From Verrucomicrobia bacterium GWF2_51_19 (GTDB lineage: Bacteria; Verrucomicrobiota; Verrucomicrobiia; Opitutales; UBA12508): a stretch of 64,000 nucleotides of DNA. The stretch is from positions 22,621 to 86,620 of the forward strand of contig MIDP01000039.1 of NCBI GenBank assembly GCA_001831095.1. The letters are read 5' to 3'. Each line of letters opens with the position of its first letter. Positions within the stretch are counted from its first letter, which is position 1. Shown in pieces: positions 2,345-63,675 of the stretch. The notes under the pieces were generated by a model that did no database searches, was not told the origin of the DNA, and saw only the letters and a list, made by a program, of their open reading frames with translations. A program made the position numbers and the translations under genes.

Positions 2345-3346
2345 ATGGACGAACTCGACAATACCCATCCCAAGCGCAACGAAGGCCTCTTTTTTTATTG
2401 TGTGCTCGATAGACAGGGCGGCGCCAGCTTTTTTTCGTCGTGGCGTACACTGTTCGATAACTGGAAAACTGACCATTTTATCTGGGTCCATCTCAATCAC
2501 CGCAGTCCAGCTGTTCAAAAATGGCTGAGGGAAGAGAGCGGCGTGCCTTCTGTAGTGGCCGAATCCATGCTCGAGGAGGACGTTCGCCCGCGCGAATACA
2601 CACATGAGGATGGCCTGTTGCTCCTTTTGCGCGGTGTCAATTTGAAGGAGGGCGCCGTCCCCGAAGACATGGTGTCTATGCGCCTCTGGATCACGAAAAA
2701 CCGCATCGTCACGCTGCGTTTTCGCGAAAATATGACAACGAAGTCAATCCAGGACGAGCTCATCACGCAAAAAGGCTTTCGCACGCCCAGCGGCTTTTTG
2801 CTAAAAATGCTCGACAACATGGTCACACCCATCGATTCCTCCATCGATGAAATCGACGCGCAGCTAGACGAAATCGAGGACGGACTGCTTCTCGCACGCA
2901 AGGAAATGACACTTTTGCCGACCATTCATATCCGCCAACGCATCGCCCATTTTCGAAAACACCTAGCCCCTCAACGCGACCTCTTGGGCAAACTCTTTCA
3001 CGAACACCTCTCGTGGCTCGACGAACGAGATTCACTCTTTATTCGCGAAGAGGCAGATACCGCCATTCGTTACATCGAAGAGCTCGACTTCCTCCGCGAG
3101 CGCTGCACCATCATTCAGGAAGAAGTCAATAACGCCCTCTCCTACACGATGAATTCCCGAATCTATTTGCTCGCCATCGCCACCGTCATCTTTATGCCGC
3201 TCACTCTCATGACGGGCCTCTTGGGCATCAACGTCAACGGCATTCCCTATTCGGACAGCAAATATGCCTTTTTCGGCGTCTGCGGACTCCTCGGTGTCAT
3301 GGCATTCTTTCTGTTCCGACTCCTAAAACGAAAGCGCTGGCTTTGA
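2345..3346 (+). CDS. zntB: CorA/ZntB-family divalent metal transporter
   Basis: 333 aa with a large cytoplasmic domain and two C-terminal TM helices. The LLGINVNGIP motif (GxN) resembles the ZntB GVNxGGIP signature. Confidence 0.7.
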   Translation: MDELDNTHPKRNEGLFFYCVLDRQGGASFFSSWRTLFDNWKTDHFIWVHLNHRSPAVQKWLREESGVPSVVAESMLEEDVRPREYTHEDGLLLLLRGVNLKEGAVPEDMVSMRLWITKNRIVTLRFRENMTTKSIQDELITQKGFRTPSGFLLKMLDNMVTPIDSSIDEIDAQLDEIEDGLLLARKEMTLLPTIHIRQRIAHFRKHLAPQRDLLGKLFHEHLSWLDERDSLFIREEADTAIRYIEELDFLRERCTIIQEEVNNALSYTMNSRIYLLAIATVIFMPLTLMTGLLGINVNGIPYSDSKYAFFGVCGLLGVMAFFLFRLLKRKRWL

Positions 3347-3477
3347 AAAGACAGGTGTAAAATAGCGCCAAAATGCGTTTCGCGCTCCGCCGACTGCCTT
3401 ACGTACGTCTTATGTACGCTACGGCAGATCGTACTCGCGCAAAGCCACATTTTTGCATCTATTTTACACCTGTCTTT
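3347..3477. repeat. R2 imperfect-palindrome repeat, copy 1
   Basis: Arms AAAGACAGGTGTAAAATAG (3347-3365) and CTATTTTACACCTGTCTTT (3459-3477). The interior GCGTTTCGCGCTCCGCCGACTGCC..CGTAC gtcttat GTACG..GGCAGATCGTACTCGCGCAAAGCC is homologous, inverted, to 3700-3790. Confidence 0.85.
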
Positions 3478-3480
3478 AAT

Positions 3481-3678
3481 CTAACTAAGCGAACACCAAC
3501 GGGTTTTTAGGCTATTTTGCATCAGTCTTAAAAGGTGAAAAGACCTCTCCTAACGGCTTTTTTAGGCAGGTTTTAACAACTTGCAAAACGTAAAACCCGT
3601 TGCAAAAGGCCGTCAAAGTTTGGCTTTGCATCTATTTTACAGCTGTCTTTAATCTAACCAAACGAACACCAACGATAT
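3481..3678. repeat. Degenerate or recombined R2-derived fragments
   Basis: AATCTAACNAANCGAACACCAACG is repeated at 3478-3501 and 3651-3674. An R2 left end (AAAACCCGTTGCAAAAGGCCGTCAAAGTTTGGCTTTGC) is fused to an R2 right end (ATCTATTTTACAGCTGTCTTT). Arm-like AAAGACCTCTCC is also present. Confidence 0.6.
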
Positions 3679-3807
3679 AAAACCCGTTGAAAAAGGCCGT
3701 CAAAGCTTGGCTTTGCGCGAGCACGATCTGCCGTAGCGTACATAGAGGTACGTGAGGCAGTCGGCGCAGCGCGAAACGAGCTTTCACGGCCTTTTTCAAC
3801 GGGTTTT
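3679..3807. repeat. R2 repeat, copy 2
   Basis: Arms AAAACCCGTTGAAAAAGGCCG (3679-3699) and CGGCCTTTTTCAACGGGTTTT (3787-3807) are perfectly complementary. The right arm touches the pntB stop codon (3806-3808). Confidence 0.85.
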
Positions 3808-5266
3808 ACATGCTTTTGAACTCAGAGACTATAGCCGCCACAGTAGCTTTGGCGTCACCGTAGATCATGCTAGCATTGGGCATTGTAAAGAGTTTGTTTT
3901 GGAGTCCGGAAAATCCTGTCCCTTGACCGCGTTTGAGAATGAAGACCGATTTGGCTTCATGAGCTCTTATGATGGGCATTCCGTATATGGGCGACGTGGT
4001 TTCGTTGATGGCAGCGGGGTTGACGACGTCGTTGGCTCCTATGACGATGGCAACGTCGACAGAGGGCATCGTCGGGTTGACAGTGTCCATTTCGACGAGC
4101 TGTTCGTAGGGCACATCTGCCTCGGCGAGCAAGACATTCATGTGGCCAGGCATGCGTCCAGCGACGGGGTGTATGGCATAACTGACTTCAGCACCATTGT
4201 TTTCCAAAAGTTGACCGAGCTCCTTAACGACGTGTTGCGCTTGAGCGACGGCCATACCATATCCTGGAACGAAGACAACCCGTTGGGCGGCCTCTAGTAC
4301 ATGATAGGCGTCGGAGGCTGAAATCGCCTTGGGCTCAACATCATCGCCATCGGACTTCTCCTGAGCGCTCGAGCCGAAGCCGCCGACAAGGACATTTTTA
4401 AGCGAACGGTTCATGGCCTTGCACATGATGACAGAGAGAATGATACCGCTGGTTCCAACGAGGCAGCCGGAGACGATGAGGACGTTGTTGGCAATGATAA
4501 AGCCGGCGGCGGCGGCGGCGAGTCCGGAAAGGCTGTTGAGAAGTGAGATAACGACAGGCATGTCACCGCCTCCGATTGGCAAGACGCCGAGAATGCCGAG
4601 AACGAGCGACACTATAATGATCGCAAAGAGGCTGACGTGTGCCCATTGACCACCCTGAACAAAGAGGACTGTTGCGGCCAGCATCGCCAAAAGGAGAAAC
4701 GCGTTGAACGGCTTTTGGCCCTTAAAGACCATCGCACGTCCAGAGACCATCCCGGAGAGCTTTGCATAGGCCAGCACACTACCTGTAAACGTAATGCCGC
4801 CAATAATGATCGCCGAAGCAATGGCGATTTGAATGTAGTTGATTTCGTTGGAAAACTTCGCAACCCAATCGATGGCTTGCAAGTTGACATCGTATAAGGA
4901 CAATTCTGGGCCAAAGAGGTTTTCCAAGTAATGCGGCCAGCCGACACGCCGCATTTCTTCGGCTTCTGCCCAACCGACGAGGAGGCTACCGAGGCCTCCA
5001 AACCCGTTCAACAGGGCAACCATCTCTGGCATGGCCGTCATCTTGACACTGTAAGCCAAAACAATGCCCAGTGCCGAGCCAATCGCAATACCAGCCAAAA
5101 TCCACGTATAGCTCAGGACGTGTTGATCCATCATTGTGGCCACAATGGCAATCAACATGCCAACAGCCGACACGACATTGCCGCGACGAGCCTGGGCAGC
5201 GGATCCCAGCATTTTAATGCCGAAAATAAACAAAATAGACGCGATGATGTAGGCTAAAGTGAGCAT
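3806..5266 (-). CDS. pntB: NAD(P) transhydrogenase subunit beta
   Basis: Multi-TM N-terminal domain plus a C-terminal dIII domain (GYGMAVAQAQ, HPVAGRMPGHMNVLLAEA). Start placed at internal MLTLAYIIASILF just after the pntAB stop; the track ORF extends to 5341. Confidence 0.9.
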   Translation of the reverse strand: MLTLAYIIASILFIFGIKMLGSAAQARRGNVVSAVGMLIAIVATMMDQHVLSYTWILAGIAIGSALGIVLAYSVKMTAMPEMVALLNGFGGLGSLLVGWAEAEEMRRVGWPHYLENLFGPELSLYDVNLQAIDWVAKFSNEINYIQIAIASAIIIGGITFTGSVLAYAKLSGMVSGRAMVFKGQKPFNAFLLLAMLAATVLFVQGGQWAHVSLFAIIIVSLVLGILGVLPIGGGDMPVVISLLNSLSGLAAAAAGFIIANNVLIVSGCLVGTSGIILSVIMCKAMNRSLKNVLVGGFGSSAQEKSDGDDVEPKAISASDAYHVLEAAQRVVFVPGYGMAVAQAQHVVKELGQLLENNGAEVSYAIHPVAGRMPGHMNVLLAEADVPYEQLVEMDTVNPTMPSVDVAIVIGANDVVNPAAINETTSPIYGMPIIRAHEAKSVFILKRGQGTGFSGLQNKLFTMPNASMIYGDAKATVAAIVSEFKSM

Positions 5267-6812: not shown

Positions 6813-7250
6813 ATGCGCAAATACCTATGCAGTTTGAGCCTTGTGGCGGTCGCCTTTGGAGCGTCTAAAATGACGCCTAATGAGCCCATTGATCACTTTT
6901 GTATGCCCATGTTTGCGCAAACTGGCTACAAGGCCTGGGATTTGAAGGGAGAAAAGGGCGTTTACTTGGACGAAAAAAACATGATCGTCCAGACCATGCA
7001 GTTAAATGTTTTCAACGGCAAAAAAGGCTCCGAACAAGAGCTCGACATCCGCAGCCCCAACGCCCGCATTCTCATGCAGGAAAATAAGGCCATCGGCGCA
7101 GCCAGCCCCATTGAAATTCGCGGTAAAGATTATACGCTCTGCGGCTATAATTGGGAGTGGGATGGCGCCGTTAAAAAAGTGACCGTTCATGAACGCGTGA
7201 ATGTTGTGTTTAATCAAGGATTTGGAGACGTTTTGCATGAAAACGATTAG
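6813..7250 (+). CDS. LptC-like / OstA-family periplasmic protein
   Basis: 145 aa with an N-terminal signal/anchor, directly upstream of and overlapping the lptA-like gene. The call rests on position and size; sequence similarity is weak. Confidence 0.4.
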   Translation: MRKYLCSLSLVAVAFGASKMTPNEPIDHFCMPMFAQTGYKAWDLKGEKGVYLDEKNMIVQTMQLNVFNGKKGSEQELDIRSPNARILMQENKAIGAASPIEIRGKDYTLCGYNWEWDGAVKKVTVHERVNVVFNQGFGDVLHEND

Positions 7251-7731
7251 CCTGATTTGTTTTGCAACCTCTCTGTGTGCGCAAGAAACGCTCATCACCA
7301 GCGATCACGTTGAAATGGTCACCGAGCCGACGCAAAATGTCTTTCACTTCACTGGCAACGTCAAGGTTTCTGGAACCGACCTGCGTGCAGAAGGCGATTC
7401 CATGACCGTCTACTCGGCTCACAAGGAGGGGCAATCGTCGGCAGGTATCGGGTCTATTGATAAGATTTTTGCCAAGGGCTCCGTGTTGATCGTTCAAACG
7501 GAACGTGAGGCGAGGGCCGGCTCGGCAGAAATTTACCCGACCGAGGGCCGACTCGTCCTCATGGACTCACCTGAAGTCAAAGAGAAGGACGGCATTGTGC
7601 GCGGCGAAAAGATTGTCTTCGTCAAAGGAGAACACAGGGCGATTGTCGAGGGAGCGGGGCCTACACAGCGGGCCACTGTCCTTTTGCCCAACATGGCACA
7701 TGTTGACATTGACGCCGACAAGAAGGATTGA
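7237..7731 (+). CDS. lptA: LPS transport periplasmic protein LptA (OstA-like domain)
   Basis: Signal peptide MKTISLICFATSLCAQE followed by the OstA-type pattern (ITSDHVEM..., FTGNVKV..., LRAEGDSMTVY, A.G.V, A..AEIY). Start placed at the internal ATG. Confidence 0.65.
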   Translation: MKTISLICFATSLCAQETLITSDHVEMVTEPTQNVFHFTGNVKVSGTDLRAEGDSMTVYSAHKEGQSSAGIGSIDKIFAKGSVLIVQTEREARAGSAEIYPTEGRLVLMDSPEVKEKDGIVRGEKIVFVKGEHRAIVEGAGPTQRATVLLPNMAHVDIDADKKD

Positions 7732-7738
7732 CCCCTTC

Positions 7739-7862
7739 AAAGACCGATGAAAAAGGGCTCTATAGCAAGGCCCGAGGAGCGAGGGCGACAGGAGCGTACG
7801 TTGGTACGTGACTTAGCCCGAACGACGAGAACGCCGCTAGAGACCCTTTTGCATCGGTCTTT
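7739..7862. repeat. R1 repeat, copy 2 (opposite orientation)
   Basis: Arms AAAGACCGATGAAAAAGGG (7739-7757) and CCCTTTTGCATCGGTCTTT (7844-7862). The apical hairpin is CGTAC gttg GTACG. It fills the whole gap between convergent stops at 7731 and 7864. Confidence 0.9.
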
Positions 7863-7863
7863 T

Positions 7864-8985
7864 TCAGCGGCCTTTCCACAAGAGCTCAATAAAATGCAGC
7901 CATAGAAACGCGCGGAGGTGATTTTTGGGCAGAAACTGTTCGTATTGGGCGCATTTTTTAGTTGGGGCGTTGGCTAGGTGGAGGTTGTGGAGGTCAGCAT
8001 AGGAAAAGGCACCGTATTGGCGGTAGTGATCAACGGCCGCTGGAGTCAATTCCGGCAGGGATCCAAAGAGGTGCATGTGGCCGCGAACAACTTCTAAAAA
8101 CCAATCTTGTCGCATTGTCAACAGGAGGCCATTTTGCGCACCTTTTAGGGTTTTGTGCGGAATGTAAAAAGAGACGGTGGGATGTTTTTTGAAAAAGAGG
8201 CCCAGTGTTTTGGCGACACAGAAACAGCCGCTGGCGACAATGCGGTCTATAATTGGCACACTGTGCTGGACAAATGGGCTGCGTTTCGGCTTTTGGAAAG
8301 TCACCGTGGAGTCGTCGAAAGGCAGGCATTCTTTGCCATCGTGGACGCAGTTGTGCAAGACCGTCTTGGGGGGAATGTAGGTGTTTGGCGCAATCAAGAC
8401 ATTCGACAGGCGCGTTCCCTGACCGATACAGCTGCCGCGGCCGATGCGAACGTTGGGGCCAACCGTGACATGGTGTTCGATGCGGACATCCTTTTCAATC
8501 CAAATGGGGTCGCAAAACCGAATGCGTCCCCAATAGTCCCACCAAAAGGCGCAATTTTGGAGGTTGCCGCTGCTGTGCTCGCGCTGGAGCCATTGTTCAT
8601 TGAGCTGGTACCAGTACTTAATGAGTCCCTTTTGCGGCATGCTGTCTGGCGCCTTCAAGTACGGCAACCGGCTCATGACGTAGACCGAGCGATTGAGCAA
8701 TCCCGGGTGACTCGACAGGATGCGCAGGCGCAAAGAAATGTTGTGTTTTGCCAAAAAGGTGCGAATTTTTCGCGGCGATTCCGTGTATAGGTGGACCTGC
8801 GTCGCGCCCTTGTCCTTTGCGAACTGCAGCCAATGTTCCAAGAGCGAACGATCCCCCACCGGCCAGAGAACAAATGGATCGCGCGAAACGATAAGGGTGT
8901 CGAGATGCTTCCACGGAGGCGCCACCAGGCTTAAAATGCGCTCCTCACCGATTTCCCATTCCCTACTTGCCGAAAGTGCTTGCAC
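7864..8985 (-). CDS. Hexapeptide-repeat (left-handed beta-helix) protein with NTP-transferase-like N-terminus; function unknown
   Basis: 373 aa with GTG start. The central region EKDVRIEHHVTVGPNVRIGRGSCIGQGTRLSNVLIAPNTYI is an LbH repeat. The C-terminal part (IIDRIVASGCF..., GHMHLFGSLPE) faintly resembles sugar-transferase domains. Confidence 0.4.
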   Translation of the reverse strand: MQALSASREWEIGEERILSLVAPPWKHLDTLIVSRDPFVLWPVGDRSLLEHWLQFAKDKGATQVHLYTESPRKIRTFLAKHNISLRLRILSSHPGLLNRSVYVMSRLPYLKAPDSMPQKGLIKYWYQLNEQWLQREHSSGNLQNCAFWWDYWGRIRFCDPIWIEKDVRIEHHVTVGPNVRIGRGSCIGQGTRLSNVLIAPNTYIPPKTVLHNCVHDGKECLPFDDSTVTFQKPKRSPFVQHSVPIIDRIVASGCFCVAKTLGLFFKKHPTVSFYIPHKTLKGAQNGLLLTMRQDWFLEVVRGHMHLFGSLPELTPAAVDHYRQYGAFSYADLHNLHLANAPTKKCAQYEQFLPKNHLRAFLWLHFIELLWKGR

Positions 8986-9044
8986 GCACTGATATAAGCA
9001 TAAAAACGCAAGGAGTGCAATTACAAAGCCGTTGAAGCCACTCT

Positions 9045-9641
9045 CCCCTCAATCATTAGCGACATTTTATTACCGCGCATCGGTTTTCCGATGCGCCCTG
9101 GATGCGCCATTAGAGAGCTCGGCGGGTCTAGGAAGCCTTTTGTGGCGAACTCCTTCGGCGCTCGGGAGCGGCTTTGGCTGTGAAAAAACAAGATATTGAA
9201 ATGGATTTGTCGTTGTTTTTAGAAAAGAATCTTCAAATATAGTATTTTTATAAAAAGTCAAGCTTTTTCGTAAAAATTTTCGGCACGGCAGAAGCTCTTT
9301 TAATATTTACATAATCCAAAAAACAATCTCGATTCCCGCATTCTGGGCTGCATCTAGCATATGCGTTATAGCTCGATGGCTTTGATACTGCGTTGGGTAT
9401 TATATAGCTGTGTATATCGGCCCTAAATATAGCCTCGACGATTTATTGCAAAAAAGCTTGACTTTTTGTTTAAAAAATTATATCAGACATTAAATACAAA
9501 AAATGAATATTTAAAATCCCAATCAATATCAGATATTAAAAAAAGTCAGCCAAAGCCGCTCCCGAACGCAGAAGGAGTGCGCCACCAACAGATCACGAGA
9601 CCCGCCGAGTTCTCGCCAACTAAACGTCGAAGTGCAACACT
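9045..9641. repeat. L element, locus 1 (two divergent units plus central segment; right terminus missing)
   Basis: Terminus CCTCAATCATTAG at 9047-9059 and hairpin GCGCATCGG-tttt-CCGATGCGC at 9075-9096. The GC core spans 9097-9185 (minus strand). TTGACT boxes lie at 9261-9256 (minus) and 9458-9463 (plus). The locus is colinear with 24210-24600. Confidence 0.8.
9070..9261 (-). other. L-unit ORF (63 codons, TTG start inside the box); coding status unresolved
   Basis: Track ORF MTFYKNTIFEDSFLKTTTNPFQYLVFSQPKPLPSAEGVRHKRLPRPAELSNGASRAHRKTDAR. The C-terminal half is conserved with 24286..24597 and 9466..9651. No SD was seen. Confidence 0.35.
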
Positions 9642-9651
9642 TAAGACTTAG
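9466..9651 (+). other. L-unit ORF (61 codons, TTG start), diverged copy
   Basis: Track ORF ...KKSQPKPLPNAEGVRHQQITRPAEFSPTKRRSATLKT. Its tail overlaps the MNT gene 3' end on the opposite strand. Confidence 0.3.
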
Positions 9652-9928
9652 CTTGCAAGACTTCGCAGTGCTTTAAAATGTTTTTGTGGAACGATTCTGG
9701 TATCTTTTCCCAATACAGCACATCGACGCGAAAAGGCAGGTCTGAATCGTCAAACGCGGCTTTCAACTGTTGGGTTTTGTCAATTGGACTTTTAAAAACG
9801 ATGTCTAGGTCAGACGTCATTTTGGCATTTCCAAACACGCGAGAACCAAAGGCCAAAACCTCTTCTCCAGGAATTGTTTCACGCAAAATGGCCAAAACAA
9901 TCTGTAGTTCTGAAGGAGCGACCTTCAT
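9641..9928 (-). CDS. Minimal nucleotidyltransferase (MNT, HI0073-like antitoxin-type)
   Basis: 95 aa. LAFGSRVFGNAKMTSDLDIVF contains the GS...DxD polymerase-beta-type NTase motif. There is a 4-nt overlap with the upstream HEPN gene. Confidence 0.8.
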   Translation of the reverse strand: MKVAPSELQIVLAILRETIPGEEVLAFGSRVFGNAKMTSDLDIVFKSPIDKTQQLKAAFDDSDLPFRVDVLYWEKIPESFHKNILKHCEVLQAKS

Positions 9929-10326
9929 CGATTCGCTCTCTCTTCTAATTTTTTGGCCAAATACTGTACCGCTTCTAAAAACTGTGGAATGCTTTCGCAG
10001 GTCGCATTGGCAATCATAAGGTCGTAGGCATGCGTTGTCTTATTGCGCATCAGGCGGTACGCATCCCACTGGACGACACTGTCTTTTATGATTTCTGCCT
10101 CAAAGGCGTATCGAATGAGCTCCTTGAATGTTAGTGATTGGATTTCAGCAGAGACGACGTTCATCTCGAGGTATTTTTTAATCATTTTTACAGCTGCGTC
10201 ATAAGTATATTCAAAACGCTGAATGATGGAGTCTCGAACAAACTCATTTGGCGTTTTTTCATATACTTTCAAAGCCACGTCAAGCGTATCAATGGCCCTC
10301 TTTAAATGACTGACATCTAAATCCAT
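9925..10326 (-). CDS. HEPN-domain protein (HI0074-family nucleotidyltransferase substrate-binding protein, toxin-type)
   Basis: 133 aa helical protein carrying RNKTTHAYD (Rx4H HEPN motif followed by Y). Confidence 0.8.
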   Translation of the reverse strand: MDLDVSHLKRAIDTLDVALKVYEKTPNEFVRDSIIQRFEYTYDAAVKMIKKYLEMNVVSAEIQSLTFKELIRYAFEAEIIKDSVVQWDAYRLMRNKTTHAYDLMIANATCESIPQFLEAVQYLAKKLEERANR

Positions 10327-10395
10327 ATGCTACTAAAGTCTAATTCGACACCTACAGCACGGTCAAGCATCAAGAGCACGGTTTCGCAACGACTT

Positions 10396-10641
10396 TCACC
10401 GCCTCCCCATGTATTTCTCGATCAACTGGTAGAGGTAGGTGAGCTGTTCATCGTGGTCGCGGACGAACTTGGCGATCTGTTCCCGGATCTCGCGGATCTC
10501 GGCCAAAATGTCTTCTTTCAGCTCGAAGTAATCGGCCTGCAGGCCCATCTTGGTATTTTTGAGCGTGTCTTGTATCTTTTTCTCGAAAAAGTCTAATTTT
10601 TCTGCAATATCTTCGTCCGACATACTTTCAATATGAAGCAA
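10396..10641 (-). CDS. Hypothetical small coiled-coil protein
   Basis: 81 aa, E/K/D rich, with no recognisable motif. It is co-oriented with the HEPN/MNT pair. Confidence 0.35.
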   Translation of the reverse strand: MLHIESMSDEDIAEKLDFFEKKIQDTLKNTKMGLQADYFELKEDILAEIREIREQIAKFVRDHDEQLTYLYQLIEKYMGRR

Positions 10642-11190
10642 ACGGACGCCAAAGACAATAAAAAAATGGACTTTTCCGATCTCTCGAGACGAATCGACAA
10701 CTGCCCTACAACGTGGATTCGGGTGTCAATCGCGGCCCAGGCGCTTGAGCTCTGCCAACGCAACCACATACAACAGTCTTTTCCTGTCTCCACGTCGAAA
10801 AAGGAGCCATGCAACATCGAGAACTCCTTTGGGACGCCGCGCGGGCTGCACGTCATCGAGGCGAAAATCGGCGAAAAGGCTCCATGGGGCATGATTTTTG
10901 TGGATCGTGTGGCTCGCGGGAAATGTTTTTGGCAATGGCCGCCCTCGCCGGAAAGCCTCATCACAAGCCGCATTCTTCGTCTCCGAGGGCTCGAAAACGG
11001 CATCAACGCTGGCCAAGACAAGTCTGGCAATGTCTGTGATTCCTTCGCCCGCTACATCTACATTCACGGCACCAATCGCGAAGATTGCATAGGTCGGCCG
11101 TTCTCCAAGGGCTGCGTCCTCCTGAACAACGCTGACATGATCGACCTCTTTGATCGCGTCACAGAAGGGACACCTGTCTGGATATTTTAA
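10633..11190 (+). CDS. L,D-transpeptidase (YkuD domain)
   Basis: IYIHGTNREDCIGRPFSKGCVLLNNADMIDLF is the catalytic H...G.S.GC(V/I) signature. Confidence 0.8.
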   Translation: MKQTDAKDNKKMDFSDLSRRIDNCPTTWIRVSIAAQALELCQRNHIQQSFPVSTSKKEPCNIENSFGTPRGLHVIEAKIGEKAPWGMIFVDRVARGKCFWQWPPSPESLITSRILRLRGLENGINAGQDKSGNVCDSFARYIYIHGTNREDCIGRPFSKGCVLLNNADMIDLFDRVTEGTPVWIF

Positions 11191-11239
11191 AAAATTTTGT
11201 TTGCCCTTCTTACTTTTTTTGAAACCATCAATTTTCTTC

Positions 11240-11983
11240 ATGGAACAACACTCACGCGCTCATGGCCGCGAACACAACGCATTGCGGCCCATCACCTTTC
11301 AACCCAACATCGCGCCGAACGCCTCTGGGTCGGTCCTCGTTCGCTTTGGCAACACACAAGTCATCTGCGCCATCACGCTCGAGAAAAAGCTGCCCAAATG
11401 GATGCTCCGCGAGGAAAACAAGACCGGCTGGCTGTCCGCAGAATACTCGATGCTCCCCTACTCCACCCTCGAGCGTAAACAACGCGACATCTCCAAAGGC
11501 AAACTCGATGGCCGCACGGTCGAAATCCAACGCCTCATTGGCCGCAGTCTACGCGCCGTCGTCGACCTCAAGGCCCTCAACGACTACACGCTCTGGATCG
11601 ATTGCGATGTTCTCCAAGCCGACGGTGGAACGCGAACAGCGTCTATCTCAGGGGCCTATGTCGCAGCCAGTCTCGCCTTTCGCAAACTCCTCCAAACGGG
11701 CTCTCTCGCTCAAAACCCACTCAAAAGCGCCGTGGCAGCCGTAAGCGTCGGTATTCTCAACAACCAGGCCCTCCTCGACCTCGACTATCTCGAAGATAAA
11801 GACGCCGCCGTCGACTTCAACGTCGTCATGACCGACTCCGGCCAGTTTGTCGAAATACAAGGTTCCGGCGAAGAATCCACCTTTTCCGAAGACCAGCACA
11901 ACGCCCTCCTCGGCCTCGCCAAGTCCGGCATTCGCAAAATCCTTCAGCTCCAACAAGAGGCCATCGCGTCAGCGACATTTTAA
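11240..11983 (+). CDS. rph: Ribonuclease PH
   Basis: RPITFQPNIAPNASGSVLVRFGNTQVICA...DCDVLQADGGTRTASISGAYVA. Start placed at the ATG at 11240 (MEQHSRAHGR). Confidence 0.9.
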   Translation: MEQHSRAHGREHNALRPITFQPNIAPNASGSVLVRFGNTQVICAITLEKKLPKWMLREENKTGWLSAEYSMLPYSTLERKQRDISKGKLDGRTVEIQRLIGRSLRAVVDLKALNDYTLWIDCDVLQADGGTRTASISGAYVAASLAFRKLLQTGSLAQNPLKSAVAAVSVGILNNQALLDLDYLEDKDAAVDFNVVMTDSGQFVEIQGSGEESTFSEDQHNALLGLAKSGIRKILQLQQEAIASATF

Positions 11984-14521: not shown

Positions 14522-14584
14522 TGCGTTGCAACTCTACGTTTCTTCTGAGAAATGTAAAGTGAAAAGACCGCTGTAAAAGGTCCA

Positions 14585-14638
14585 ACAATCATTAGCGAAA
14601 TTTTAAAGCGCAATGGACGTGCGATCTTTCTAATTGAG
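14585..14638 (-). repeat. L-element 3'-module fragment
   Basis: The reverse complement CTCAATTAGAAAG..N21..AAAATTTCGCTAATGATTGTTG aligns with 24542-24600 (CTCAATTAGAAAGGG...TTTTTCGCTAATGATGATTGAGG). Confidence 0.55.
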
Positions 14639-14677: not shown

Positions 14678-14802
14678 AATCTCGTTGTTAAAATCGCTTC
14701 CAGCGGTGTTCCGCGTCACTCGGGCTAAGTCACTTACCTCAAGTAGACTCCTGTCGCCCTCACTCCGCAGGCCTTGCTGGAAGCGATTTTAACAACGAGA
14801 TT
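14678..14802. repeat. R1 repeat, copy 3 (divergent arms)
   Basis: The 24-nt arms AATCTCGTTGTTAAAATCGCTTCC and GGAAGCGATTTTAACAACGAGATT are perfectly complementary. The core is CGGGCTAAGTCAC TTAC ctcaa GTAG ACTCCTGTCGCCC. Confidence 0.85.
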
Positions 14803-17669: not shown

Positions 17670-17793
17670 AAAGACCTCTCCAAAATGACCTCTAGCGGCG
17701 TTCTCGTCGTTTGGGCTAGGTCACGTACGTCAGTACGCTCCCGTCGCCCTCGCTCCTCGGGCCTTGCTATAGGCGCATTTTGAAGAGGTCTTT
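17670..17793. repeat. R1 repeat, copy 4
   Basis: Arms AAAGACCTCTCCAAAATG (17670-17687) and CATTTTGAAGAGGTCTTT (17776-17793) have one mismatch. The apical hairpin is CGTAC gtca GTACG. The element sits 4 nt from the yidC ATG. Confidence 0.9.
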
Positions 17794-19880: not shown

Positions 19881-20177
19881 GCCTCAATCCATTCTGGCGG
19901 TATGGAACAATTAATAAGCTCGTTGCGGCACGTGATGCGGAAATTGAGATGGGGCATCGTGGATCATATAGAGATTGCGAATCGAGGGCGTGTTGTCACA
20001 CGCAGAGCTTGAGGGAGTTAGTACTTCTGTAGACGCATTCACCGCAGACCGGTTAAAAACGCAGGAAGTTGTTTTCACTCTTTTGGTGAAATTTAAATTA
20101 GAACACTCATGACCATGCAGGCCTCAATTAGAAAGGCAACGCGACCAATAGGACTTGTTTTTCGCTAATGATTGAGG
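19881..20177 (+). repeat. L element, locus 3 (truncated, no box or 5' core)
   Basis: Bounded by CCTCAATCCATT (19882-19893) and CTAATGATTGAGG (20164-20176). The interior joins a central-repeat tail (GCTCGTTGCGGCACGTGATGCGGAAATTGAGAT) to modules shared with 23700-23770 (inverted) and 24455-24600. Confidence 0.75.
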
Positions 20178-22988: not shown

Positions 22989-23600
22989 TTAGAACAATCG
23001 GGCTCCGTGACACCCAGCCAGGAAATTTTGAACGGCCATGGCGCAGAGGAGAAAGCCCGATAGCCGTGTTCCGATACGCAGCACGACGGGCGTAAACAGC
23101 TCAATCTTTTTAGCGGCGACGTAGAGGGCGATGTAAAGTGTGATTTCCACCAAGACAATCGCCAGGTAGACCGAAGCATGTTGCGTCGAATTGACCGCCG
23201 CCGACTTGAGGTTGATAACGGCCGTCAAACATGCTGGGCCGGCGATCACTGGAATGGCGAGGGGCGCGATCGTGATGTCGAAAAAGTGCTTTTCGCTGTG
23301 CATCGTATTTTCCTCCAACTTGCCCAAAATGAGGTCCATCGACGCGATAAAAAGAATGACGCTTCCCGCTATTTTAAAGGCATTGAGGCTGATGTTCATG
23401 CTCTCAAACAACTTGAGACCGAAGGCGGCTGTGAAGAGAAACAAGAGCAGCGCCACGATCGTCGCAATCGTCGCAATGCGCACGCGTTCGGCAGTCGTCC
23501 GATTGGCCGTAAAACTGATAAAGATCGCCACCACGGCAATGTGACTGCTGACGACAAAAAATTGCAGAAACGTTTTTTCAAAAAAAGCTAAGTTGGACAT
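22989..23600 (-). CDS. marC: MarC-family (UPF0056) integral membrane protein
   Basis: Six hydrophobic segments and typical size. Start taken at MSNLAFFEKTF (ATG 23600). The track ORF extends to 23702 through the L-element terminus. Confidence 0.7.
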   Translation of the reverse strand: MSNLAFFEKTFLQFFVVSSHIAVVAIFISFTANRTTAERVRIATIATIVALLLFLFTAAFGLKLFESMNISLNAFKIAGSVILFIASMDLILGKLEENTMHSEKHFFDITIAPLAIPVIAGPACLTAVINLKSAAVNSTQHASVYLAIVLVEITLYIALYVAAKKIELFTPVVLRIGTRLSGFLLCAMAVQNFLAGCHGARLF

Positions 23601-24000
23601 ATAAAGAGCATCTGTTACGCCAGAGAATCGACGGTTTGTCAAAGATTTTCGTGCACGTCCTGCAAGCCCCTCAATCATTAGTGAATTTTTACTACCGCGC
23701 ATCGGTTTTTCGATGCTCCCTTGAATGCGCCGTTAGAAGTAGTAACTCACTCCAACTCTGCGTGTGGCAACACGCTCTGGATGCGCCATTAGAGAGCTCG
23801 GCGGGTCTCGGGAGCCGTTTGTGGCGCACTCCTTCTGGGCCCGAAAGCGGCTTTTGCTGATTTTTGAAAAATAGGCGGAGATTGATTAGGGGTTTAGAAT
23901 ATTAGATTTTTATATTTAATATCTATTGTGTTTTTTAAATAAAAAGTCAAGTTTTTTCGTAATAAATCGGCGATACCTTATTCCTAGGCGAAAGGCACAT

Positions 24001-24209
24001 CACTGTAATGCCCAACGCAGCATCAAAGCCGTCGAGCTATGGCGCATAGGCTCGTTGCGGCAAAGAATGCGGAAACAAAGCCGTCGAGTTATCGCCTGCA
24101 AGCTCGCTTCGGCCATATTCAGAGCCAAAAGGAACGTCACTGCAAGGTCCAACGCAGCGCCAAAGCCGTCGAGCTATGGCGTGTAGGCTCGTTGCGGCAA
24201 AGAATGCGT
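24001..24209 (+). repeat. Two 72-nt direct repeats in the centre of L locus 2
   Basis: CACTGTAATGCCCAACGCAGCATCAAAGCCGTCGAGCTATGGCGCATAGGCTCGTTGCGGCAAAGAATGCGG (24001-24072) is repeated at 24138-24209 with 8 differences by hand count. A partial CAAAGCCGTCGAGTTATCGCC lies between them. Confidence 0.8.
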
Positions 24210-24285
24210 GAATTGAGATTGATGTTTATTGATTATGTAAAGATTAAAAGAGCTTCTGCCGTGCTGAAAAATTTTACGAAAAAGC

Positions 24286-24597
24286 TTGACTTTTTACAAA
24301 AATACTATAATCAAGGATTTTTATATAAAAACAGCGACAAACCCATTTCAATATCTTGTTTTTTCGCAGCCCAAGCCGCTCTCGAATGCAGAAGGAGTGC
24401 GCCACAAACGGCTACCGAGACCCGCCGAGCTCTCTAATGGCGCATCGAGGGCGGCTTGCAGACGCGGACCAGTTAAAAATTCAGGGAAGTGTTTTCACCA
24501 TTTGGTGAAATTTAAATTAGAGCACACATGGCCATGCAAGCCTCAATTAGAAAGGGAAAGCGGTCGGCATGACTTGTTTTTCGCTAATGATGATTGA
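24286..24597 (+). other. L-unit ORF (103 codons, TTG start inside the box); coding status unresolved
   Basis: Track ORF MTFYKNTIIKDFYIKTATNPFQYLVFSQPKPLSNAEGVRHKRLPRPAELSNGASRAACRRG... Of 10 codon differences versus 9070..9261 across the 31-codon core, 8 are synonymous. Confidence 0.35.
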
Positions 24598-24691
24598 GGG
24601 CAAGCCACCTCAATCATTATTGAATGACTGAGGGAGGGCAGTGCACACAAAAGTTGTATGGCTGAAGTGAACGCAACTAGAGCATCGACTC

Positions 24692-25171
24692 TTACGTCGA
24701 CTCTTCAGAATCGGTTGCTTCGTTGGCGGAGGGGAGGTCCTTTTCGCTCTTGAAGCTGCGCATCAGGACGTCGATGCGGCCAACGTTTTCGATGCCAAGG
24801 TTTTCACGAAGGCCGATGAGGATGGCGTTTTGAATGCGCACCGAGAGGCTCGAGAGCTGTTCGCCGGCGCGGAGAACGATTTTCACAAGGATGTGCAGAT
24901 TTCCGCGGTGCTCTTTGACCGATACTGATGGCCGATACGTGGATCCGACGCGCATGCAAGCGTTTGAAATGACGCCCAAGAGCGCCCGCTTCGAGACGGA
25001 AACGCGGCCGGTGTCGGTTTGGAGAATATCGATCGGGCGAAAACGGCGGCACATGCGAATGAGCAACCACAAGGCGATCACGGCCCCGATGATATAGATT
25101 TGCGGGGCCTCGTTCCAGTCGTAGACAATGTCTTTAAGCGTGTCCCAGGAAATTGAGTTGATGATGTCCAT
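24692..25171 (-). CDS. AmaP-like membrane anchor protein (Asp23-associated)
   Basis: 159 aa with one N-terminal TM helix (IYIIGAVIALWLLI) and an Asp23-like body. It lies directly downstream of the Asp23-family gene. Confidence 0.5.
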   Translation of the reverse strand: MDIINSISWDTLKDIVYDWNEAPQIYIIGAVIALWLLIRMCRRFRPIDILQTDTGRVSVSKRALLGVISNACMRVGSTYRPSVSVKEHRGNLHILVKIVLRAGEQLSSLSVRIQNAILIGLRENLGIENVGRIDVLMRSFKSEKDLPSANEATDSEEST

Positions 25172-25620: not shown

Positions 25621-25720
25621 AAGAGACCTTTGCAAAACGTATATTAAATATAAAATAACCTTTTGAAGAAATCAACCAACCATTTGTTTTTAGTTTTTAA
25701 AACAGAATCATTTTTACTCT

Positions 25721-25972
25721 CCGAAGACCTACACAAAATGTCGTCAAAGCTTGGCTTTGCGCGAGTACAATCTGCCGTAATAGCAGCGTTATCCATCCGG
25801 CTTCGCCAATTTTTTTGCGAAATATAAAAATGCATGCATTTTTGTGTTTCGCTTTAAAAGTTTTTTGGAGAGGGGGTCGGGGAGAGACTTTTTTTCAAAA
25901 AAGTCTTTCCCCGTGGCCAGTCGGCGCAGCGCGAAACGAGCTTTCACGGCATTTTGTGTAGGTCTTCTTCGG
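25721..25972. repeat. R2 repeat with about 130 bp internal insertion
   Basis: Arms CCGAAGACCTACACAAAATG (25721-25740) and CATTTTGTGTAGGTCTTCTTCGG (25950-25972). R2 left and right interiors are separated by an unrelated AT-rich segment that contains the hairpin GGGGAGAGACTTTTTTT-c-AAAAAAGTCTTTCCCC. Confidence 0.8.
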
Positions 25973-30645: not shown

Positions 30646-30767
30646 TGGTCTATCTTTTCTCTAGATTTTTGACAAAAAGTCAAAACCTTTTTCCTAGAAG
30701 ATGCATACTACCTCAATCATTAGCCATCGAGGAAAAAGTTCACCAGTGATTTAGGTTTGATTTACCG

Positions 30768-32969
30768 TTACGGTTCAAACTTGAAGATCGCCGTCGACAG
30801 GGGTGGCAAGGTGAGGGTGGCTGAGTAGGGCCGGCCGTTCCAGGAGAGGGCTTCTGTCGCGATGGCACCCTTGTTGCCGATGTTGGATCCGCCGTATTCG
30901 GAAGCGTTGCTGTTGAAGATTTCCTTCCAGGTGCCGTGATGTGGCAGGCCAAAACGGTAATTGTCGCGCTGGACGGGTGTAAAGTTGCCGACGATGAAGA
31001 GTGTTTCGCCAGAATGTTTGCCGATGCGGAGAAAGCTGATAATGCTGTGTTCCCAATCATCGGAATTTATCCATTGGAAGCCATCGGGGTTGTAGTCGTT
31101 GGCTGCGATGCTACGGTGTTCGCGGTAGAGGTGGTTGAGGTCGCGGACGGCCCGCCGGATGCCCTCGTGATCCATGTATTGAAGCAGGTGCCATTCGAGG
31201 CAGCGGTCGTAACACCATTCAATCGATTGGCCGAAGTCGGAGCCCATGAAGAGGGTGTTTTTTCCGGGCCACATCCACATGTAGGTGTAGAGCGCGCGGA
31301 GCGTTGCCGCCTTTTCACTCATGTGCCAGGAGCCCATTTTCATCATCATCGAGCCCTTGCCGTGGACAACCTCGTCGTGCGAAAAGACCGATATAAAGTG
31401 CTCGGAATACTGGTAGAGCATGCCGAACGTGAGTTGCGAATGGTGGTGTTTACGGTGTACTGGGTCTTTTTTAAAGAACTCGAGGACGTCGTGCATCCAG
31501 CCCATATTCCACTTGAAATCGAAGCCGAGGCCGTAATCCGAGGTCGGGTGAGAGACGCGACCAAAGGCGGTCGACTCTTCGGCGATCGTCACAGCGCCCG
31601 GGTAGTAGTGGTGGATGAGGTCGTTGGTAGAGCGGAGAAAATCGATGGCACCAATGTTTTCCCGGCCACCGTATTGGTTTGGGACCCAGTTGCCATCTGT
31701 GCGGGAGTAGTCGAGGTAGAGCATCGAGGCAACGGCGTCGACGCGAATGCCGTCAATGTGGAAGCGGTCAAACCAAGACAGCGCGCTGCCGATGAGGAAA
31801 TTACGGACTTCGTGGCGGTCGTAGTTGAAAATGAGCGTTCCCCAGTCCTGATGCTCGCCTTGACGCGGGTCGGCGTGTTCGTAGAGGGCGGTGCCGTCGA
31901 AGCGGGCGAGGGCAAAAGCGTCCTTCGGGAAGTGCGCCGGTACCCAGTCGACGATCACCCCAATGCCGTGCCGGTGGAGCTGATCGACAAAATACATGAA
32001 GTCCTGAGGCGTTCCAAAACGGTGTGTGGGTGCGAAAAAGCCGGTCACCTGGTATCCCCAAGAGCCTGAGAACGGGTGTTCAGCTACGGGCATCAATTCG
32101 ACGTGCGTGTAGCCCATCTCTTTGAGGTAGTCAATCAGCTCATGGGCGAGTTCACGGTAAGTGAGCGGACGGTCACCATCATCGGCCTTTCGCTTCCACG
32201 AGCCCAGGTGCATCTCATAGATCGACATCGGCTCCTGCCGCCAGTTCGTGCGACTTCTGTGATCGAGCCAGCCAAAATCTTTCCAATCAAAGTCTTCAAT
32301 GTCCCAAATGATCGACGCGTTGTTCGGTGCGCCTTCAAAGTAGATGGCGTACGGGTCGCTCTTGAGCAGGAGCTCTTCGTGTGCCCCCCAGATCTCGTAC
32401 TTGTACTTCATGCCGCGTTCCAGGCCGGGAACAAAGAGCTCCCAGATGCCCGAAGAGCCCATCAGGCGCATCGGCAGATAATGACCGTCCCATTGGTTGA
32501 AGTCGCCGACCAAAGACACGCGCCTTGCCGACGGTGCCCAAACGGCAAACGCAACGCCCGAAACACCGTTAATTTCACATATCCGCGATCCGAGCTTGCT
32601 GTAGGCCCGGTGATGCTTGCCCTCGTTGAAGAGGTGGAGGTCTTCATCAGAGAGTGTCGGAAGGAAGCTGTAGGGGTCGTAACATTGGCGGATTTCGCCG
32701 TTGTACTGTTCGAGGCGCAAGCGGTAGGGAAAGACGCTGTTTTTGTCCGCAATGACGACTTCGAAAAGGCCATTTTCAGAGAGCCGCTGCATCGGGTAAC
32801 GCTTTTCTGGAGCGCTGGTGAAGTCAATGACCTCACAGGACATCGCGTTTTGCAAGAACGCTCGAACGACCACCCCGCCTTCCCTCAACGGGTGCATGCC
32901 CAGAATCGAATGGGGGTGTTTGTGTTGAGCGGATTCTATCGCCTCGAGATCAAGTTTTTTAATAAGCAT
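30768..32969 (-). CDS. glgB: 1,4-alpha-glucan branching enzyme
   Basis: GH13 blocks include HRHGIGVIVDWVPAHF, GIRVDAVASMLY and VTIAEEST. ATG 32969 (MLIKKLDLEAIE) is preferred over TTG 33014. Confidence 0.9.
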   Translation of the reverse strand: MLIKKLDLEAIESAQHKHPHSILGMHPLREGGVVVRAFLQNAMSCEVIDFTSAPEKRYPMQRLSENGLFEVVIADKNSVFPYRLRLEQYNGEIRQCYDPYSFLPTLSDEDLHLFNEGKHHRAYSKLGSRICEINGVSGVAFAVWAPSARRVSLVGDFNQWDGHYLPMRLMGSSGIWELFVPGLERGMKYKYEIWGAHEELLLKSDPYAIYFEGAPNNASIIWDIEDFDWKDFGWLDHRSRTNWRQEPMSIYEMHLGSWKRKADDGDRPLTYRELAHELIDYLKEMGYTHVELMPVAEHPFSGSWGYQVTGFFAPTHRFGTPQDFMYFVDQLHRHGIGVIVDWVPAHFPKDAFALARFDGTALYEHADPRQGEHQDWGTLIFNYDRHEVRNFLIGSALSWFDRFHIDGIRVDAVASMLYLDYSRTDGNWVPNQYGGRENIGAIDFLRSTNDLIHHYYPGAVTIAEESTAFGRVSHPTSDYGLGFDFKWNMGWMHDVLEFFKKDPVHRKHHHSQLTFGMLYQYSEHFISVFSHDEVVHGKGSMMMKMGSWHMSEKAATLRALYTYMWMWPGKNTLFMGSDFGQSIEWCYDRCLEWHLLQYMDHEGIRRAVRDLNHLYREHRSIAANDYNPDGFQWINSDDWEHSIISFLRIGKHSGETLFIVGNFTPVQRDNYRFGLPHHGTWKEIFNSNASEYGGSNIGNKGAIATEALSWNGRPYSATLTLPPLSTAIFKFEP

Positions 32970-33042
32970 ACGGTTTCCAATCTCTTTTCTAAGAGACGGC
33001 CCCGGCGACTTCAATGCTTTTTTAGATTTTTTTCCACACTAT

Positions 33043-33070
33043 CCTCAATCATTAGCAAAGGATTGAGGGG
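33043..33070. repeat. Solo pair of L termini (hairpin CCTCAATC..GATTGAGG)
   Basis: CCTCAATCATTAGCAAAGGATTGAGGGG lies in the glgB/ftsQ divergent gap. It carries the two terminus motifs back to back with no internal modules. Confidence 0.6.
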
Positions 33071-35313: not shown

Positions 35314-35316
35314 ATT

Positions 35317-35436
35317 AGACCGATGATAAATGGTTTTCTGGCAAGGCCCGAGGAGAGAGGGCGACAGGAGCGTACATATGGTACGTGACTTAGCCCGAAA
35401 GACGAGAACGCCGCTAGAAACCATTTTGCATCGGTC
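35317..35436. repeat. R1 repeat, copy 5 (arms decaying), overlapping the dnaE 3' end
   Basis: Arms AGACCGATGATAAATGG and CCATTTTGCATCGGTC. The apical hairpin is CGTAC atatg GTACG. The dnaE stop TAG (35416-35414) is the CTAG of the conserved inner stem GCTAGA. Confidence 0.85.
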
Positions 35437-43337: not shown

Positions 43338-43582
43338 AAGACCATTGCAAAAGTGTCTCTAGCAGCGTTCTTCCCACAGGCAAATGTGGCAATAAGTTCG
43401 TTATCCATCGTGATTCGCCTAGGTCACGCATTTCAATGCGCTCCCGTCGGCTCACACTCGGAAGCCTGCTTCTTGCCCCATTTGCCTGCGGGACTGTCGT
43501 TTGGGCTAGGTCACGTACCAACGTACGCTCCCGTCGCCCTCGCTCCTCGGGCCTGGCTATAGAACCATTTTTCAACGGTCTT
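43338..43582. repeat. R1 composite: one R1 nested inside another
   Basis: Outer arms are AAGACCATTGCAAAAGTG (43338-43355) and CATTTTTCAACGGTCTT (43566-43582). The inner element, about 43376-43490, has its own arms CACAGGCAAATG and CATTTGCCTG and an apical hairpin CGCAT ttca ATGCG. The host core resumes with GTCGTTTGGGCTAGGTCAC CGTAC caac GTACG. Confidence 0.75.
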
Positions 43583-48752: not shown

Positions 48753-48881
48753 ACTGCCTACATGATAGCATTTTTATAACCCACTGGTCAATGCTGAAAA
48801 AATATAAGTTTAGACTAGAAAAAATACTCAAGAACTGCTTTGCTAATGTCAACTCTCTTTAATATTAACATCAAGGAGCGA

Positions 48882-49003
48882 GCCGGCATGAAAAATGGCT
48901 CTAGAGCAAGGCCCGAGGAGCGAGGGCGACAGGAGCCTACTTAAGGTAGGTGACTTAGCCCGAACGCCGCGAAACGCCGCTATAGACCATTTTCCGTGTC
49001 GGC
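48882..49003. repeat. R1 repeat, copy 7
   Basis: Arms GCCGGCATGAAAAATGG and CCATTTTCCGTGTCGGC; two of the three arm differences are G:T-type. The apical hairpin is CCTAC ttaag GTAGG. The element ends 7 nt before the ybaB ATG. Confidence 0.85.
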
Positions 49004-56548: not shown

Positions 56549-56675
56549 AAAAAGACCTCTGCAAAAAGACCTCTAGCGGCGTTCTCGTCGCTTGGGCTAA
56601 GTCACCTACGTTAGTAGGCTCCTGTCGCCCTCACTCCTCGGGCCTTGCTATAGGTCCTTTTGCAGAGGTCTTTTT
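56549..56675. repeat. R1 repeat, copy 8
   Basis: Arms AAAAAGACCTCTGCAAAAAG (56549-56568) and CCTTTTGCAGAGGTCTTTTT (56656-56675). The apical hairpin is CCTAC gtta GTAGG. The element directly abuts the sufS ATG (56548). Confidence 0.9.
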
Positions 56676-62459: not shown

Positions 62460-62581
62460 AAGACCGTTGCAAAATGTCCTCTAGCGGCGTTCTCGTCGTT
62501 CGGGCTAAGTCACGTACCAACGTACGCTCCTGTCGCCCTCGCTCCTCGGGCCTTGCTATAGAACCATTTTTCAACGGTCTT
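62460..62581. repeat. R1 repeat, copy 9
   Basis: Arms AAGACCGTTGCAAAATG (62460-62476) and CATTTTTCAACGGTCTT (62565-62581), with an extra AAGACCGTT duplicated at 62451-62459. The apical hairpin is CGTAC caac GTACG. Confidence 0.9.
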
Positions 62582-62623
62582 ACACATCATAAATTATTAA
62601 TAAACAAAGATTTATGAAGCATG

Positions 62624-62733
62624 TTATCAAAGCTTGGCTTTGCGCGAGCACGGACCTGCCGTAGTGTACATAGATGTACGTGTGGCCAGTCGGCGAAGCG
62701 TAAAACGAGTTTGCACTGCATTTTGCATATGCG
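62624..62733. repeat. R2 repeat (left arm missing)
   Basis: TCAAAGCTTGGCTTTGCGCGAGCACGGACCTGCCGTAGTGTACATAGATGTACGTGTGGCCAGTCGGCGAAGCGTAAAACGAGTTTGCACTGCATTTTGCATATGCG aligns with 3700-3800. Confidence 0.75.
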
Positions 62734-63555: not shown

Positions 63556-63675
63556 AAGACCTCCTCAAAATGAGCCTATAGCCAGGCCCGAGGAGGGAGG
63601 GCGACAGGAGCCTACTGACGTAGGTGACTTAGCCCGAGCGACTAGAACGCCGTGGGCCATTTTCAGGAGGTCTTT
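63556..63675. repeat. R1 repeat, copy 10
   Basis: Arms AAGACCTCCTCAAAATG (63556-63572) and CATTTTCAGGAGGTCTTT (63658-63675). The apical hairpin is CCTAC tgac GTAGG. The right arm ends at the flgG ATG. Confidence 0.9.

Follow-up and report, generated by a model that had tools for sequence, protein, structure and literature searches.

Locus 1, the non-coding stretch between a hexapeptide-repeat protein gene and a pair of MNT and HEPN genes, is very probably a right-truncated copy of a non-autonomous, DDE-type transposable element with MITE-like, foldback organization. In its intact form, the "L element" is a transposable element of the foldback type, non-coding and dispersed; its family, MITE-like or BOX-like and hitherto undescribed, represents a class of mobile repeat that is ordinary in bacteria. 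The anatomy of L, its dispersal, its target-site duplications, its lack of coding capacity and the position of the break at locus 1 (9614) are all established directly. The original prediction described a portable pair of units. The pair corresponds to two inverted, non-identical arms, A and B, present across the mapped copies, and the terminal inverted repeats, the 7-8-bp duplications and the occurrence at about 16 unrelated loci support the portability, with the pair forming the interior of the transposable element. Throughout, "the window" is the whole 64,000-nucleotide stretch of DNA that was analysed.

The copies of L map to three loci in the window and about 13 in related metagenome contigs (numbered labels such as L002 stand for these). 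A search with a degenerate 39-nt core pattern returned 11 metagenome loci from two assemblies, which have repeats in common with the window and no genes. The architecture is the same across the roughly 16 copies (window plus the 11 metagenome loci). Read from the left, it consists of a minus-strand terminus (TERM), an HP hairpin or a TAIL module with or without INS, a minus-strand core, an arm, one to six 48-nt hairpin repeats, a second arm, a plus-strand core, an optional INS with HP or TAIL, and a plus-strand TERM. Within each arm, the AAAAGCTTGACTTTTT box is invariant and is followed, 14 nt on, by a TATAAT-like hexamer, then by an AT-rich leader and a GC-rich core of ~87 nt. The arms are inverted and unlike each other: the upstream segment is longer in arm A, and the two arms have different leaders. 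The 48-nt repeat between them (CENT) occurs in one to six copies per element, and the end modules (HP hairpin or TAIL, with or without INS) are interchangeable, occurring on either arm.

Complete copies measure 731, 884, 931 and 954 bp, and the overall difference between copies is ~10%. The centre of L has a GC content of 0.34, compared to 0.52-0.57 in the flanks, and the whole 931-nt copy at locus 2 folds back on itself (z=-14.8). This copy (23669-24599) is our complete reference; it runs TERM-HP-INS-core(B), then three CENT repeats, then arm A-core-TAIL-TERM, with GCAAGCC on both sides. The window also holds an internally deleted fragment on the plus strand (19977-20177), in which the left arm is absent and a core end, INS, TAIL and TERM are present. 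Within the near-invariant core, two short patches are hypervariable, at 9157-9167 in locus 1 and at the same positions in all copies. One flanks an invariant CG (CTCYCG-RRNN-C) and the other lies ~30 nt on; the changes are mostly transitions, and the patches form no consistent base pairs.

Both ends of L carry the inverted repeat (TTTCG)CTAATGATTGAGG. The arrangement CCTCAATCATTAG(CGAAA) ... (TTTCG)CTAATGATTGAGG bounds locus 2, L002, L003 and both elements of L008 on either side, and a complete L has 18-bp terminal inverted repeats, CCTCAATCATTAGCGAAA ... TTTCGCTAATGATTGAGG. The TTTCG extension is common to HP-type and TAIL-type ends (at least 30 ends), and the 13-mer CTAATGATTGAGG, which has 11 window matches at up to two mismatches against 1.1 expected, is the outer limit of every repeat module, with sequence outside TERM at once unique. 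Target-site duplications lie directly outside the 13-mer: TAAAGACG at L002 and GCATACTA at L003 (8/8 each), (C/T)AGAGGAA at the second element of L008 (7/8) and GCAAGCC at window locus 2 (7 nt). Since the duplications begin directly outside it, the 13-mer moves with the element. The genes next to L copies are unrelated housekeeping genes (TsaE, DnaJ-domain, glutamate dehydrogenase, glucosaminidase, Cache, MarC).

Several ends depart from this pattern. Two inverted terminus pairs, one forming a 186-bp mini-element at L010 and the other at L006, have no duplications. At L008 element 1 (7869-7948 and 8622-8692), the flanks carry not an 8-bp but a ~80-bp direct duplication, made up of the 3' half of TAIL, the terminus and ATTTAGCGTAATAGGT, which suggests recombination between element ends rather than simple transposition. 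Nor is the terminus specific to L: it ends other repeat modules as well and stands alone, free of any L core, at 30711-30723, 33043-33068 (33043/33056), 14583-14595 and 24608-24620. The copy at 33043-33068 is a back-to-back inverted pair with nothing between its members and, together with the solo copy at 30711, brackets glgB; the one at 24608-24620 lies 1 nt beyond the locus-2 duplication. The solo 13-mers are possibly solo ends or internally deleted derivatives, and there is a hint in them that insertions prefer existing ends. We rejected glgB as cargo of a terminus-bounded transposon (30711 to 33068), because no duplication flanks that interval and glgB is an ordinary gene.

L does not encode a protein. 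Its reading frames are broken by 1-2-nt indels that differ between copies, its translated identity is 37-58% where DNA identity is 82-90%, and its internal ORFs have no Pfam match, which together rule out the ORFs at 9070-9261, 9466-9651 and 24039-24437 as small-protein genes. No autonomous partner, that is, a transposase gene between the same repeats, was found in the 64-kb window or in ~110 kb of related contigs. The sole transposase-like ORF near an L copy is a 95-aa ORF with an HTH_38 domain at L005 (10146-10433), which adjoins a truncated L arm and is probably a fragment. HTH_38 is the N-terminal DNA-binding domain typical of IS30-family transposases, and the ORF suggests a relation to IS30, a family that leaves 2-3-bp duplications.

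Beyond these contigs, the 39-nt core pattern has no match in 185,579 species-representative genomes or in viral contigs. The family is absent from Rfam, from the plasmid, phage and viral collections and from the literature searched, and we discarded a plasmid, phage or viral origin for L because no match turned up in those collections. Set against the features of a MITE, L has the terminal inverted repeats, the duplications, the absence of a conserved ORF, the dispersal and the AT-rich foldback, but at 731-954 bp its complete copies exceed the miniature size of roughly <500 bp. Together these traits point to a non-autonomous element of the cut-and-paste kind.

At locus 1, arm A retains all its parts, from the terminal repeat and HP module through the core to the leader and box; of the two terminal repeats of the element, only the left one is present. 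The left flank CACTCTCC (9039-9046) occupies the position of the duplication in complete copies; its partner on the right is absent, with no match at up to one mismatch in 9500-11300. The terminal inverted repeat, TTTCG plus CTAATGATTGAGG, spans 9047-9064 on the minus strand, with an exact 13-mer at 9047-9059. It is followed by the HP end module (9060-9096, minus), whose 9-bp hairpin GCGCATCGG-TTTT-CCGATGCGC lies at 9075-9096 and has no U-tract after it; a terminator scan makes no call there. The 87-nt GC-rich core of arm A (9094-9180, minus) is 87-89% identical to 23773-23859 and 24367-24453 and 91% identical to a 28-copy consensus. Its leader and upstream segment (9182-9322, minus) contain the invariant box AAAAAGCTTGACTTTTT at 9251-9268, with TATATT 14 nt after TTGACT (9261-9256). 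A single CENT repeat (9347-9394, minus; nhmmer E=4e-6) separates arm A from the upstream segment and leader of arm B (9430-9546, plus), where the nhmmer profile match starts at 9430 and the box lies at 9451-9468, with TTGACT at 9458-9463.

These assignments bear out most of what had been proposed for the left side of the locus. Both TTGACT hexamers, the hairpin and the terminus are located as described, and the proposed core of the minus unit is recovered at about 9094-9180 (87% identity to 23773-23859). Colinearity with the plus unit of locus 2 runs for 229 nt at 89% identity when no gaps are allowed and for 249 nt at 88% when they are, and the one inverted central repeat that had been reported is the CENT copy given above. 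As proposed, the minus unit faces the GTG start at 8985, and the minus unit of locus 2 faces marC, with 68 nt between the terminus and the likely start codon of that gene (ATG at 23600).

The gene that arm A faces (7864-8985, minus) encodes a hexapeptide-repeat protein, and 61 nt separate the arm A terminus from its GTG; public annotation gives the same 373-aa product. In a search for an orthologous empty site, this protein has no match in the 185,579 species-representative genomes and, among 5.8 billion proteins, no homologue but itself. The nearest homologue of the neighbouring YkuD protein is 55% identical, and its contigs show no synteny. A variant of locus 1 without the L element would read as the junction GAAGCCACTCTCC followed by unique sequence. 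The window is identical to contig DPTP01000064.1 (GCA_003530575.1) over 12.4 kb, and L013, a Logan contig from SRR6482117, stops at window position 9485.

On the right, the element is cut. The core of arm B (9547-9614, plus) ends after position 68 of 87, where both local alignments to seven family members and the 28-copy nhmmer profile stop. The 26 nt between the cut core and the MNT stop codon (9615-9640) have no significant homology to the family, as 517 of 2000 shuffles score equally well, and the break thus falls 27 nt short of the stop codon (9641-9643). Two earlier claims change accordingly. Homology of the plus unit had been thought to end at 9641, exactly on the MNT stop, and alignments, nhmmer and shuffles all place the end at 9614. 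The plus-unit core had been called diverged, but at 89.7% identity to the consensus it sits within the range of the other 27 copies (81-96%) and is truncated instead. Beyond the HEPN gene there is no arm B remnant, end module, terminal repeat or CACTCTCC duplicate. The idea that the right end was replaced by the HEPN-MNT block consequently survives in part: the truncation of arm B and the missing end module, terminus and left-flank duplicate past the block agree with it, and the junction at the exact stop codon does not.

The neighbouring block contains two minus-strand genes. The MNT nucleotidyltransferase gene (9641-9928, 95 aa; PF01909, E=3e-8) is convergent with arm B, and the HEPN (NTase_sub_bind) gene (9925-10326, 133 aa; PF08780, E=8e-29) overlaps it by 4 nt (9925-9928). 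GSx..DxD and Rx4H motifs are present in the MNT and HEPN translations, the HEPN gene has its own promoter-like site in a promoter scan (10366-10337), and the GC content of the block is 0.40-0.46, compared to 0.52-0.57 in the flanking genes. With adjacent MNT and HEPN genes, the block is a predicted HEPN-MNT toxin-antitoxin pair. It resembles HepT/MntA-type pairs in encoding PF01909 and PF08780-type proteins from overlapping genes. The usual MntA-HepT layout places the antitoxin (MntA) first; compared to canonical operons, the gene order here is reversed, with HEPN upstream of MNT. In a comparison by shared 5-residue words, the pair has no close homologue among 5.8 billion proteins.

We propose the following history for locus 1. 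A transposase acting in trans would move L, leaving a 7-8-bp target-site duplication. This copy probably inserted between genes, ~61 nt upstream of 7864-8985. A later deletion or illegitimate recombination, associated with the low-GC HEPN-MNT cassette, would then have cut the right side, taking the last 19 nt of the B core, the end module, the terminal repeat and the right-hand duplication, a loss of perhaps 70-220 nt of element plus the right flank. The copy would no longer be able to transpose, and any effect on gene 7864-8985 would plausibly be outward transcription from the arm A box.

The original prediction went further and proposed that the units act as portable promoters or 5' leaders, in which case L would be a mobile bidirectional cassette that rewires the genes it faces (7864-8985 here and marC at locus 2). 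Such a role does not conflict with the transposon interpretation and would add a function to it; on the sequence features available, we consider it possible but doubtful. TTGACT (a 5/6 match) and its flanking A- and T-tracts are invariant in 28 of 28 units, and a TATAAT- or TATATT-like hexamer (4-6/6) stands at a fixed distance in both arm types, despite their differing spacers; the best-scoring -10-like hexamer is at the same 14-nt offset in 25 of 28 units. However, that spacer (14 nt in these 25 units and 15 nt in the locus-1 B arm) is shorter than the canonical 16-18 nt. A sigma-70-type test thus finds near-consensus hexamers but not the 16-18-nt spacing, and a promoter scan makes no call at the L boxes. 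The invariance of the box is equally explicable as a requirement for transposition. An invariant internal box 200-330 nt from the ends is not expected under neutral decay of a parasite, which means that the element may also do something.

The placement of L copies can be read in two ways. No terminator-like site intervenes between the arm A box and gene 7864-8985, nor is any promoter recognisable in the 61 nt from the terminus to the GTG at 8985. Of 20 element ends, about 15 point towards the 5' end of a gene, at 18-99 nt from the start codon, and at L008 only 10 nt separate an element from the ATG of a CopG/BrnA-type antitoxin gene that is intact. There is precedent in the promoter-bearing MITEs Correia/CREE, ERIC and BOX (PMC3488235, PMC3049150). 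Five ends, however, face gene 3' ends, including both B/A ends by MNT and by 24692-25171, and the 5' bias (binomial p about 0.02) would arise in any case, since intergenic regions with promoters are the longer ones and an insertion in other places is lethal. Where intergenic regions are as short as here (~115-170 nt before insertion) and promoter disruption is selected against, surviving insertions would come to lie 50-100 nt upstream of starts without any further cause.

A more specific version holds that L is a mobile bidirectional expression cassette, in which each arm would carry an unusual functional promoter, TTGACT-N14-TATAAT, that drives outward transcription through the ~87-nt core as a leader. 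We regard this version as rather unlikely. If it were true, transposition would rewire the hexapeptide-transferase gene, marC and, in a related genome, an antitoxin gene with a displaced promoter, and the cut arm at locus 1 would make antisense RNA across the MNT-HEPN operon.

The antitoxin gene in question (PF12441, E=2e-27) follows a complete L at L008 (9489-10507). The insertion lies 10 nt upstream of its ATG, and its 8-bp duplication (AGAGGAA) copies the Shine-Dalgarno region. With the ribosome-binding site duplicated in this way, 0.7 kb now lie between the gene and its native promoter. The antitoxin gene has no BrnT-like toxin gene beside it; a TPR-like ORF and then flhA follow. Two other promoter arrangements were tried and rejected. 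A hybrid promoter with TTGAGG at the element tip as -35 finds no consistent -10 at 16-18 nt into the flanks (by eye), and native promoters with the TTGACTTTTT box are represented by one intergenic match only (30674), the other exact matches being inside a coding gene. Similarity to the L box (GAAAAAGGTTTTGACTTTTTGTCAAAAAT; nhmmer with the unit profile, E=0.021) is also seen at 30660-30702, in what looks like the native promoter of an ABC-ATPase gene (ATG 30645). There a solo terminus comes first and the box-like site directly downstream of it, the reverse of the order inside L.

An alternative account of the right side of locus 1 makes the HEPN-MNT cassette itself the mobile unit, inserted into an intact L at a precise site that is its own end, the MNT stop codon. 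The low GC content of the block is in line with this, as is the fact that toxin-antitoxin genes adjoin L ends twice, here and at brnA in L008. A simple insertion should have left the remainder of arm B past HEPN, but none is there. The absence of an arm B remnant, a terminal repeat and a left-flank duplicate excludes simple insertion of the cassette into L. The homology break is also 27 nt off the stop codon, and the 5.8 billion proteins contain no other copy or close homologue by which the ends of a cassette could be defined. We find this account quite improbable and favour the loss of the right side by deletion or illegitimate recombination.

Still less likely is the view that L is a pair of divergent small-RNA genes amplified across the genome, each gene made up of a promoter, a leader, a structured core and a terminator hairpin. 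Each arm does look the part, with a promoter-like box followed after ~150-250 nt by a GC hairpin (HP) or a U-rich TAIL ending in CUUGUUUUUCG, and the core is the best conserved long block. Its structure, however, is not that of a conserved RNA. The fold is no better than that of shuffled sequence (z=-1.2 and -1.9), the covariation term from RNAalifold over 28 copies is -0.26, with one of 21 pairs compensatory, and the HP stem carries mutations in other copies without compensation. No canonical terminator is called, and the 3' modules are exchanged freely between arms. L has no Rfam family even at E<=10: over the window, Rfam reports only tRNA-His at the gathering threshold and nothing credible at E<=10 in either locus. 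We thus ruled out a known RNA family or conserved RNA structure for L on the basis of Rfam, fold z-scores and covariation.

Equally hard to sustain is the suggestion that the 13-mer CTAATGATTGAGG serves the host in promoter regions, as a cis-regulatory or protein-binding site beside which L accumulates: solo 13-mers do lie, gene-oriented, 46-71 nt upstream of starts (30711, 33043/33056, L010 4741/4914), but duplications lie directly outside the 13-mer, it faces gene 3' ends too (24599, L002 1031, L008 9489, L011 10472), it forms nested or tandem ends in other repeats (L005 9717/9768, L008 7918/7949, and an inverted copy inside TAIL), and intergenic regions of ~115-170 nt make a start-codon distance of 50-80 nt nearly forced.

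The window contains further repeats besides L. An unrelated family consists of a ~122-nt near-perfect palindrome with at least 10 window copies (379-500, 7740-7861, 14690-14797, 17671-17792, 35316-35412, 43461-43582, 48881-48977, 56552-56673, 62460-62581 and 63556-63652) and others in related metagenome contigs. The copy at 7740-7861 (fold z=-6.6) lies exactly between the convergent genes 7201-7731 and 7864-8985, and the palindrome looks like a REP-like, MITE-like or terminator-like element. A third group (3344-3810, 25710-25956 and 62593-62725; families D5, D7, D9 and D15-D17) has ~90% identity with related contigs.

L itself has practical consequences for sequence analysis. The public contigs L004, L005, L007, L010 and L013 end inside L, and the family thus breaks short-read assemblies. 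It could also mislead annotation, as ORF callers make phantom ORFs of 60-130 aa through it. More broadly, L shows that an uncultured lineage of Opitutae/Verrucomicrobia carries mobile intergenic repeats of mosaic build.

Comparison to known elements places L among the MITE-like and BOX-like repeats. MITEs are defined as AT-rich, highly base-paired sequences with terminal inverted repeats and target-site duplications (PMC3049150). L shares with bacterial MITEs the terminal inverted repeats, the 7-8-bp duplications, the absence of coding sequence, the AT-rich centre, the foldback, the many intergenic copies and the nested or clustered insertions. However, bacterial MITEs are typically <0.3-0.5 kb, whereas L is 0.73-0.95 kb or more and has arms unlike each other.

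In its modular plan, L resembles the BOX elements of pneumococci and other streptococci, which are built as boxA - n x boxB - boxC (PMC3049150). In both, an internal module of ~45-48 nt is repeated a variable number of times between two terminal modules that differ from each other, and both use alternative end modules (boxE/F in S. suis). The terminal modules of BOX are reported to stimulate downstream genes (PMC3049150). The two are unrelated in sequence. L is several times larger, its 8-bp duplications are clear, and each of its arms contains a long inverted core. The hosts also differ, BOX being found in Firmicutes and L in Verrucomicrobia.

As a mobile intergenic repeat that places outward promoter-like hexamers upstream of unrelated genes, L also recalls Correia elements (CREE) of Neisseria, ERIC of Yersinia and the 'putative mobile promoters' (PMC3488235). 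Correia elements are 100-155 bp long, have TA duplications and carry promoters that are terminal or partial (PMC3488235). In L, by contrast, the candidate boxes lie 200-330 nt inside the ends, as apparently complete -35/-10-like pairs with a 14-nt spacer. If these boxes are active, L would be a clean natural case of promoter mobilisation with a non-canonical 14-nt spacer.
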